The notes: generated by a model not told the origin, from the sequence alone. A stretch of 64,000 nucleotides of DNA from Rhizophagus irregularis (GCF_026210795.1 NC_089429.1:5208001-5272000); one strand, 5' to 3'; shown: positions 20,585 to 23,400, counted from the first letter of the stretch. Program-made: numbers and translations.

Positions 20585-23400
20585 AAAACTCTGTAAATTC
20601 CATAATATAAGGTTATTAATTCCTGAGATATGAGCCTTATACGGAAAAAAGTTGGAAGGTATCAAACTTCTGGTAAGTTTCGCAACGAAACATTGCGAAA
20701 CTACTTTTTCATTTTTTAACGAAACATTTTTTAGTAACGCTTCGAAATATTATTCTTATTTTTAATTTCTTTAATCGGAACGTTGGCTAACGTTCCGATT
20801 TATTATTTTTTTAAATTTTTAAATCGGAACGTTTTTAACGTTCCAAAATATTCTTTTTTTTTTAATTTTTAATCGGAACGTTGGCTAACGTTCCGATTTA
20901 TTATTTTTTTTTAATTTTTAATCGGAACGTTGAAAAACGTTCGAAATATTGTTTTTTTTAAAAAATTTTTTAATCGGAACGTTGGCTAACGTTCCGATTA
21001 ATTTTTTTATTTCATTTTTTAATCGGAACGTTGAAAAACGTTCCGAAATATTGTTTTTTTTTGATTTCTTTAATCGGAACGTTAGCTAACGTTCTGATTA
21101 ATTTTTTTATTTCATTTTTTAATCGGAACGTTGGCTAACGTTCTGATTTACATTTTTTGTTCTTTTTTAACGAAACGTTTTTAACGTTTCGTTATTAACT
21201 TTTTTCATTCCTTTTAATCGAACGCTGAAAAACGCTCCCGATTTACATTTTTTTCTTTTTTAACGAAACGCTTTTAACGCTTCGTAATAACTTTTTTCTT
21301 TTTTAATCAGAACGTTGGCTAACGCTCCGATTTTTTTATTTTTTATTTTTTTTAATCTTTTAAGCGTTTTTAACGTTTCGTTAATAACTTTTTTTTTCTC
21401 ATTTTTTTTAATCGGAACGTTACCTAACGTTCCGATTTACATTTTTTTTCTTTTTTTAACGAAACGTTTTTAACGTTTCGTTATTAACTTTTTCTTTTTT
21501 TTTTAATCGGAATGTTGGCTAACGTTCTGATTTTTTTATTTTTTTATTTATTTTTTTAACGAAACGTTTTTAACGTTTCGTAATATTTTTTTTTAATTTT
21601 TTTTTTAATCGGAACGTTTTTTAACGTTCCAAAATAATTTTTTTTTGATTTTTTTAATCGGAACGTTGGCTAACGTTCCGATTTTTTCATTTTTTAACGA
21701 AACGTTAAAAAACGTTTCAAAAATTTTTTTTTAAATTTTTTGTTTTTAACGAAACGTATCTAACGTTTCGTTTTTTTATTTTTATATCCGCTTCCTGGAT
21801 GATTCAGGTAAAAATTATTTTTTTTAATTTTAATTTATTTTAACGAAACGTGACTAACGTTTTGTTTTTCTTCTTTTTAGGTCCGCGGATTTCTGGACGT
21901 TTTCTGAACAAGATTTTGAAGGTAAAACTTCAAAGTCTTTTCTTTATTTTTTGTTTTTAAAGAAACGATATTAACGTTTCTTTTTTCTTCTTTTTGTAGG
22001 TATCGAACTTTTGGATAGTACGATGGTGAGTTTCGCAACATTTGTTGCGAAGCTTTGATTTTTTAAAGAAACGATGCTAATGTTTCTTTTTTTTTTTCTT
22101 TTCTTTTGTAGATATCGGACTTTGGGTAGGCAAAATGTGAGTTTCGCAACGTTTCATTTCGTTGCGAAACTTTATTTTTAATTTTTTTTTAAGAAACGTT
22201 CTAACTGAACGTTTCTCTTTTTTTTTGTAGGTTCGATTTCCGTGAATTTTGAAATTTGTAAAATGGTAAGTTTCGTACGTTTCGTTACGAAACTGCCGTT
22301 TTTTTATTTTTTTCTTTAAGAAATGTTCTAACTGAACGTTTCTCTTTTTTGTTAGGTTTGATTTCTGGGAATTCGAAATTCGGAAAATGGTAAGTTTCGT
22401 AACGTTTTGTTATGAAACTTCCGTTGTTTTTTTTTATTTTTTTTAGGAAATATTTACTAATATTTCCTTTTTCTTTATTTAGGTTTCGGTTTGTCTTTGA
22501 TTAAAAACTTAAAATGGTAAGTTTCGTAACGTTTCATTTCGTTACGAAACTTAATAATAATTTTTTTATTTAATTAGGAAACTCTTACTAACGTTTCCTT
22601 TGATCTTTTTTTAGGTTTCAGAAATTTAAGAAAATCAAAAAAAACGGTAAGTTTCATACGAAACTTTCTTTTTTTTTTTGATTTATTCTTTATGAAACGT
22701 TCTAACTGAACTTTTCTCTTTTTTTTGTAGGTTCGATTTCTGGAAATTTTGAAATTTGGAAAACGGTAAGTTTCGTACGTTTCGTTACGAAACTTCCGTT
22801 TTTTTTTTGTTTTTTTTTAATTAGGAAATGTTTACTGACATTTCCTTTTTTTCTTGTAGGTTCCAGGAGTTTTGAGTTGGCCGGGAACTTGAGGTAAGTT
22901 TTGTTCATTATGAAACTTTCCTCATTTTTATTTTTTTAGGAAGCGTTTATTAACGTTTTCCTTCTTTTATTTTATAGGATCCATTCGGTGTTTTACTTTG
23001 GAAAAATGGTAAGTTTCGCAATCTTTGCGAAACTTAAATTTATTGACTTTTTTAGGAAACGTTTGTTAACGATTCCTTTTTTTTGTAGGCTTCGGTCAGG
23101 TTATTGGAATATGGATCAGATCGCAGAAGGTGATTACTTTTGTTGTGGAATATTATTAATGGACTTAGAGAAATTCATCAAAAACGAATGGTTGTGTAAA
23201 TTTCGTTAACGAAACTTTTGTGTTTTTTTTATTTGAAAACCCACCTTGTTATGGTTGTGTCACCAGGGGCGCTTTGTCAACGGAAATTTAGTACGTTGAT
23301 CGCTTAAAAATCCGCGGCAATCCAATTATAACAAGAGGTTAATTTCTTTAAATAATGTATTTGTATTATTTGTATTGTACTGTATTTTATAAATAAATTT
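20585..23400 (+). ncRNA. Putative highly spliced non-coding transcript with hairpin-structured introns and micro-exons
   Basis: TATAAAAA at 20556, first donor 20673, eleven further GT..AG introns between 21808 and 23088, AATAAA at 23392; no long spliced ORF. Transcription not demonstrated. Confidence 0.55.
20773..21772 (+). repeat. Array of about 21 palindromic units (about 49 bp period) with T-rich linkers
   Basis: Alternating AATCGGAACGTTGGCTAACGTTCCGATT and AACGAAACGTTTTTAACGTTTCGTT types. Confidence 0.92.

Follow-up and report, generated by a model that had tools for sequence, protein, structure and literature searches.

The window analysed here, a 64-kb stretch of the Rhizophagus irregularis genome, contains a non-autonomous cut-and-paste DNA transposon whose cargo is a chain of exon-plus-intron units. 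Across related loci the features of U2-type introns in these units, namely GT donor, YTRAY branch motif, pyrimidine tract and YAG acceptor, are under purifying selection. Judged from this conservation, the units are very probably spliced. We suggest tentatively, at somewhat less than an even chance and by analogy with animal systems, that the tandem cargo is spliced so as to mark the RNA of the element as host-like, as a protection against RNA silencing.

The carrier element and its intron chain

The window has a GC content of about 28% and contains kinase genes in tandem, a Sel1 gene with 22 repeats, a Helitron-like region with a PIF1 helicase and two transposases of the pogo type, which agrees with the high-copy classes given for Rhizophagus in PMC8647823. 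The chain sits in a 3.7-kb element (20034-23752) bounded by 13-bp inverted ends with AG on each side (Table 1). Because the flanking frames of the interrupted pogo gene come back into register once one AG is discounted, the target duplication is of 2 bp. The right terminal repeat recurs in two related loci, L006 and L043, with 0-1 mismatch and different flanks, right ends only being compared. No frame of at least 120 aa occurs within 20158-23752 and no transposase was found inside the element, nor any autonomous copy among the related loci. The context of a non-autonomous transposon, as proposed by the sequence-only reading, is thus borne out by the ends, the target duplication and the lack of a transposase inside.

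Ends of the form CA..TG and target duplications of 2-4 bp characterise CMC/EnSpm elements, and we take the CA..TG ends and 2-bp duplication seen here to point to the CMC supergroup, an assignment made from the ends only since no transposase was found. Duplications of both 2 and 3 bp within CMC are exemplified in PMC12810828, and CNEST makes 2-bp TA duplications (PMC11075540, PMC12810828). The likeness to CMC (CACTA/Mirage/Chapaev; EnSpm and Plavaka of AM fungi; the same two papers) extends to ends starting with CA, short inverted repeats, subterminal repeats and the 2-bp duplication; the element differs in that its ends read CATCAG, not CACTA or CACGG.

The observed/expected ratio for CpG reaches 2.5 in the element, compared to 0.08 in the Sel1 array next to it and a value near 1 in other transposons. 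The Sel1 gene (11653-14781) consists of 22 tandem 108-bp repeats, and its ratio of 0.08, compared to 1.19 for the rest of the window, suggests long-term methylation and decay. A further observation concerns the Helitron-like region (25002-29493, minus strand), which adjoins the pogo element and has a GC content of 40%; frames upstream of its PIF1 helicase are broken by stops.

Table 1. Features of the element and its target in window coordinates.
Feature	Position	Strand	Remarks
Interrupted pogo/Tc5-type transposase gene (target)	18951..24594	-	HTH_Tnp_Tc5 and DDE_1 on opposite sides of the element
Target-site duplication, left copy	20032..20033	.	AG (2 bp)
Left terminal inverted repeat	20034..20046	+	13 bp, begins CATCAG
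Left subterminal TATACGC repeats	20069..20168	.	At 20069 and 20162
Pyrimidine-rich tract and TATA box	20479..20562	+	TATA box at 20556; from sequence
First exon part with ATG	20630..20672	+	ATG at 20630
Twelfth donor, with hairpin	20673..20705	+	GTAAGT; absent from the earlier reading
Array of branch-point-like hairpins	20701..21790	+	19 hairpins, spacing about 49 nt
Intron 1	21808..21880	+	Donor directly after CAG
Intron 2	21922..21999	+	Donor GT in loop of exon-intron hairpin
Introns 3-11	22026..23088	+	80-98 nt; exons between them 25-35 nt
Last exon	23089..23464	+	Longest Met-frame 32 aa
Right subterminal region	23521..23739	.	73% identity to end of L043 element
Right terminal inverted repeat	23740..23752	-	
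Target-site duplication, right copy	23753..23754	.	AG

All 11 units that had been proposed from the sequence were confirmed on checking, each starting with GT and ending with TAG. The exons between them, 41, 26, 25, 35, 34, 34, 32, 35, 34 and 31 nt long as previously given, are also richer in purines than the introns (0.47-0.69 compared to 0.32-0.41), and each spliced frame meets a stop by the third internal exon. Each of introns 3-11 runs from a donor hairpin to TAG, with a branch hairpin between two U tracts. Hairpins had been described from 22026 onwards, where they are indeed present, but the intron at 21922 also has a donor hairpin, at -15.4 kcal/mol. Eight of the 11 introns fold better than all 200 of their shuffles, the remaining three having z values of -2.65, -0.95 and -2.39; the mean z for nine chain introns is -5.11, compared to -0.03 for six presumed introns of the host kinase genes in the same window. 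The donor motif is matched 16 times in the window (shuffle mean 0.33), 15 times inside the element, with six of the 16 matches lying on the reverse strand, mostly in hairpin arms. A profile-based caller run over both strands of the 64 kb made nine calls, all of them among the 11 units.

Although the 11 units are real, the complete unit is longer: TATA box, ATG, twelfth donor and hairpin array lie upstream, and the chain is its 3' part. The pyrimidine-rich tract with its TATA box is a candidate RNA polymerase II promoter. From the ATG at 20630 the frame runs for just 32 or 36 codons, according to which of two joins is tried. The following 1.1 kb (20679-21807) contains 5 AG dinucleotides where 32 are expected, and ends with CAG followed at once by the GT of intron 1; as far as its sequence goes, the stretch may serve for recursive splicing or be a zone of AG exclusion of great length, and the CAG/GT itself is a possible zero-length exon or recursive site. 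The CpG ratio of the branch-like hairpin array is 4.8. A comparable array without acceptors, differing in sequence, is present in the related locus L024. The last exon has a donor-like motif near 23188 without an acceptor, and AATAAA at 23392 and 23459. An early-stopping frame followed by many downstream junctions would be the usual layout of a decay substrate.

Selection on splice signals and hairpins in related loci

Scanning metagenome contigs once by the donor-hairpin pattern gave 58 loci, of which 25 match the element by BLAST, mostly with 64-72% identity over longer stretches. The other 33 were dropped (one of them, L046, was checked and has no unit), and removal of L042, on the same contig as L043, and L037, which has no unit, left 23 for analysis. 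Base composition and shared element ends suggest that these contigs, most of them only 1-3.5 kb long, come from related fungi. The profile caller found 126 units in all, with units in 22 of the 23 loci and at least three in 18; on opposite strands it called 2 units, compared to 135 on the unit strands. Since L041 is approximately a copy of part of L043, it was excluded from the hairpin-anchored, exon-phase, change-rate, pairing-probability and G.U tallies, and kept in the analyses of exon similarity, length change and codons, spacer matches and stem covariation. Two loci deserve separate mention. L001 (430-2882) has a chain of around 20 units that reaches the contig edge, with several CAG acceptors; in 13 of the units a TTCGAA-based hairpin carries the donor GT in its loop. 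L025 (1-1099) has an intron chain joined to GC-rich sequence reading like a bacterial ABC transporter, and is probably a chimeric metagenome contig.

Rates of change were measured over nearest-neighbour links in a minimum spanning tree (87 links, 88 units), the units being related to each other and the anchors being consensus matches. As had been expected of an intron array, GT, branch and AG are far better kept than their neighbours and the exons drift. GT changed in 1 of 167 comparisons (0.006) and AG in 0 of 168, and in the branch motif the A changed in 2/86 (0.023), the T at -2 in 1/82 (0.012) and position -3 in 1/84 (0.012). The control positions gave 12/83 (0.145) at branch -4 and 18/81 (0.22) at exon +1; position -1 changed at 0.12. 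Since the stems, conserved in both arms, changed at around 5% (82/1563) and the exons at around 26% (697/2676; range 0.25-0.28), the view that GT and AG are kept no better than neighbouring bases fails. GT and AG together are also kept better than the stems (1/335 compared to 82/1563, p 2e-6, for units that are not independent). Five units lack a proper GT: one shows a point change and the others resemble deletions or misassignments. The commonest branch 7-mer is TACTAAC (17/84).

Similar results came from anchoring on hairpins. With branch hairpins alone as anchors in homologous loci, an AG follows within the 4-30 nt examined in 79 of 80 cases, at distances varying from 6 to 23 nt, and 63 of the 80 lead to YAG after a pyrimidine tract (shuffle mean 8). 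Once the donor hairpins that the search pattern itself imposed are set aside, 33 of 37 have GT while the mirror AC on the other arm is present in 10 of 37, so that hairpin symmetry does not explain the GT. The profile of conservation, as read from these alignments, is that of selected splice sites; it is sharper than that of the hairpins and is not one that bulk homogenisation would give. No precise intron loss or exact exon-exon fusion was found in the 23 loci and the window, the 21 candidate rows all proving by inspection to be intact junctions or T-run artefacts.

The claim that hairpins mask the splice signals holds for the donor, of which positions +3 to +6 are predicted to be about 80% paired in context, but the branch motif is half displayed: its first bases lie in the loop, the predicted pairing probability being 0.13-0.24 for positions -5 to -2 and 0.75 for the branch A. 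A second type of donor, with GT in the loop, occurs 13 times in L001 and once in the window, and the 5' introns of a hAT-like group of loci have no hairpins; 'masked' is therefore too simple a description. Hairpin arrays expand without acceptors both in the window (20701-21790) and in L024, and hairpins therefore have a life apart from splicing.

Covariation in the donor stem, where the selection pattern makes the first five pairs invariant by construction, amounts to 18 two-sided cells (0/500 shuffles); at one pair A-U, C-G and U-A each occur six times among 23 sequences. RNA stems are expected to show an excess of G.U over A.C, and the donor stem does so (39:20, p 0.02); the branch stem has no excess (23:25). 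For the branch stem, RNAalifold returned no consensus structure from the alignment. When the structure was imposed, 84.8% of cells paired (22/500 shuffles) with 13 two-sided changes (0/500), and pair-level measures of covariation were not above shuffles, some rows being out of register; the covariation evidence is weaker here than for the donor stem. One-sided breaks are frequent among stem pairs (51 and 55 cells), and the compensation could come from DNA-level palindrome correction or from paired CpG decay.

The exons appear non-coding, in agreement with the sequence-only reading. Their lengths modulo 3 are spread (27/20/23 for 70 exons), 18 of the 21 differences in length among homologous exons are not multiples of three, and exon substitutions follow no codon period (p 0.25 and 0.13). 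Copies differ in the order of their exons, and in 22 loci and the window no Met-frame after the last called intron exceeds 54 aa. One stop-free frame is present in 6 of 14 chains, where shuffles lead one to expect about 2.6, three of the six being near-identical; among chains of at least five exons none of the five is open. Three protein searches with unspliced frames, which are weak tests, revealed no spliced gene model: they gave no candidate, 186 candidates of which none was significant, and only the query's own record. A role of the exons as spacer-like guides was rejected, their matches elsewhere in the window being of 12-22 nt and at chance level.

Neighbouring exons in one locus are often near-copies of each other (z 7-10 in the window, L029 and L057), so that exon and intron duplicate together in tandem and not by introner insertion. 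The idea that the units are introner-like and seed new introns is accordingly not supported: the duplicated unit is exon plus intron, no copy with a precise intron loss was found, and the host genes of the window contain none of these introns. Ends of the CATCAG/CTGATG type occur in the window, L006 and L043, and with one more mismatch in L033; YAGTGTTGTTAA ends, which we take to be of the hAT-like superfamily, in L007, L055, L057 and L058; and other types of subterminal repeat in L024, L030 and L040. Since both ends are present only in the window, placement inside an element is deduced for the other loci from one end and subterminal repeats. A 42-nt exon matches between hAT-like and CTGATG-type loci (z 7), and at the level of sequence comparison these data show the same module between different kinds of element ends.

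Possible roles of the chain

The exons being non-coding, no known intron RNA having been found and the splice sites being selected, the act of splicing is the likeliest selected trait. Transcription would start from the TATA region, and splicing of the chain RNA would load it with spliceosomes and junction complexes. The spliced RNA would then decay, since the one frame it has ends early, ahead of many junctions. Repeated splicing might mark the element's RNA as 'self' and so allow escape from siRNA and CG methylation, and copies left unmethylated would remain accessible to transposase acting in trans. The hairpins likely tune this splicing, the donor stem slowing U1 pairing and the branch stem showing the first bases of the branch motif in its loop to U2, for which they could act as a toehold. 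A shielding cassette of this sort, whose short RNA would be much spliced and soon degraded, would explain both carriage by unrelated types of element and the high CpG ratio. Against it, the predicted pairing of donor +3 to +6 should hinder splicing and fits stalling as well or better. The anti-silencing step follows animal precedents: nuclear RNAi is restrained by introns in C. elegans (PMC5554785), and in human cells introns work against HUSH (PMC8770142). In AM fungi, Argonautes are expanded (PMC7082362) and young transposable elements are methylated and targeted by small RNAs, those that are expressed being less methylated (PMC8647823).

Several other explanations draw on the same evidence. 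The chain might be a leftover leader, that is, the intron-rich 5' UTR or accessory transcript of an autonomous transposase gene or a captured host gene, of which this copy is a deletion derivative and whose selection acted in the master copy. Internal deletion is the usual origin of non-autonomous elements, promoter-like sequence lies upstream of the chain, and donors have been lost from some units of L043 and L055. Intron-rich recombinase genes are, moreover, found in Glomeromycota transposons (PMC13465315). We nevertheless regard this origin as unlikely, if by no means negligible: none of 22 loci has a long frame after the chain (a linked gene could escape, most contigs being of 1-3.5 kb), a single transposase leader leaves one exon family between different ends unexplained, and the signals are kept also in young tandem duplicates (L029, L024, L057). 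Stalling of spliceosomes by the donor stems could instead serve as a silencing trigger, through SCANR-like siRNA, or as a trap soaking up splicing factors. The roughly 80% pairing predicted for donor +3 to +6 and the two-sided covariation of the stem would suit such a role, for which there is precedent in Cryptococcus, where poorly spliced transposon RNAs are routed to siRNA (PMC5851062). The signals are near-consensus, however, as the commonness of TACTAAC testifies, hairpins are missing from the 5' units of the hAT-like group, and the spread of a self-silencing cargo through several transposon families would be unexpected, which leaves this role quite unlikely.

The excised intron with its two hairpins might also be the product, the exons being spacers as in snoRNA host genes. 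Conserved, structured introns between drifting exons, and stems changing at only about 5% in both arms, are what such a gene would display. Yet Rfam yields no family at gathering score (six weak chance-level matches far below it in the window and none in five loci), inspection reveals no C/D or H/ACA boxes, hinge and tail are U runs, and loops vary widely in sequence and length. Each intron of the window has two separate short stems, of 7-14 bp, which is shorter than a Dicer substrate. The suggestion of intron-derived small RNAs becomes doubtful on account of this stem length and the Rfam result, and we consider the whole explanation improbable. Mirtrons are defined by one hairpin, long enough for Dicer, from donor to acceptor, and were rejected given the two separate short stems. 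It is decidedly improbable, too, that the chain is a DNA minisatellite or set of protein-binding palindromes, repeated from one exon-intron unit, homogenised by recombination and unspliced today. Non-autonomous elements often have tandem repeats at their centre (PMC9659126), an array of hairpins without acceptors lies immediately upstream, the branch stem lacks a G.U bias, and many compensatory changes are from CG to TA, as two CpG decays could produce; but conservation that is highest at GT, branch A, -2 T, -3 and AG and passes over -4 and exon +1 is not what homogenisation would produce, and the signals are strand-asymmetric, with 2 units called on opposite strands and 135 on unit strands. 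A protein-coding micro-exon gene, degenerate in the window copy, could be argued from the commonest exon length of 42 nt (9/70) and the open frames of 6 of 14 short chains, and is extremely improbable given that 18 of 21 length changes are off-frame, that codon periodicity is lacking, that members of the 42-nt family between them have stops in all three frames and that exon order differs between copies.

Returning to splicing as a protection, a broader and rather doubtful form of the proposal is that AM fungal transposons of several superfamilies exchange a promoter and an expandable, hairpin-tuned and product-less intron chain as counter-defence. If true, this would be an anti-silencing device made of introns, not of protein, and selected at the level of the transposon. 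What is known of splicing as protecting or betraying a transposon RNA comes solely from experiments on the host side, in worms, human cells and Cryptococcus; a natural family of transposons with selection on the splice signals alone would be evidence from the side of the parasite. Intron number differs among copies, and the question is therefore accessible through RNA, small-RNA and methylation data. The conserved donor and branch stems offer, in addition, a natural series on how structure tunes splice-site use. Two-thirds of AM fungal repeats are unclassified (PMC11075540), and the family may contribute to these; it might also explain some domain-less 'orphan' gene models.

Relation to known systems

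Like the introns of the chain, the introner-like elements of Dothideomycete fungi (PMC3609843) are spliceosomal introns in many copies, with canonical signals and predicted structures that are stable. They are, however, near-identical introns gained at many sites in different genes, whereas here homologous exons duplicate with the introns in tandem, as non-coding transposon cargo, and the host genes of the window were found to contain no such intron. DINEs/HINEs, Tetris and MITE-derived satellites (PMC9659126) likewise lack a transposase and enclose between their ends an internal array that varies in copy number; the element differs in that its repeat is exon plus intron, with selection on splice signals, and in that the module occurs between ends of different kinds. 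It adds to the known non-autonomous elements with internal tandem arrays; an intron-built, shared counter-defence would be categorically new, should it prove real, which we think rather unlikely.

In the snoRNA host genes GAS5 and UHG, numerous short exons that do not code alternate with structured, conserved introns, and the spliced RNA probably decays. The chain resembles them in its exons and introns and in the likely decay of its RNA, and differs in having no snoRNA family or boxes, in that all its introns are paralogues of one unit, and in riding on transposons. In the EMB-4/HRDE-1 (PMC5554785), HUSH (PMC8770142) and SCANR (PMC5851062) systems splicing status decides the silencing of transposon RNA, but these are host surveillance, and no intron-built transposon cargo that exploits such systems was found described there. 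Schistosoma micro-exon genes (PMC10526429) share the runs of very short exons, but have long introns and encode secreted proteins, unlike the 73-98 nt paralogous introns and non-coding exons of the chain. The predicted introns in recombinase genes of the Glomhopper paper (PMC13465315) are a different case. A search of the literature at the level of titles and the starts of abstracts showed no prior description of an intron-chain transposon cargo. The word 'intron' is absent from the main text of the main R. irregularis transposon papers, of which the supplements or repeat libraries may file the consensus as unclassified.

Some minor observations concern the contig of L043. A second chain (7780-8720, plus strand), on the strand opposite to that of the main chains, consists of repeated short introns without hairpins and of micro-exons, one of which, judged by eye, is similar to the 5' exons of hAT-like loci. 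About 630 nt beyond the right end of the element lies a TET/JBP-type oxygenase frame (347-1825, minus strand; Pfam Tet_JBP, E 1.7e-9). A further frame (10513-11433, plus strand), without a Pfam match, ends by eye with two CCHC-like zinc-knuckle motifs.
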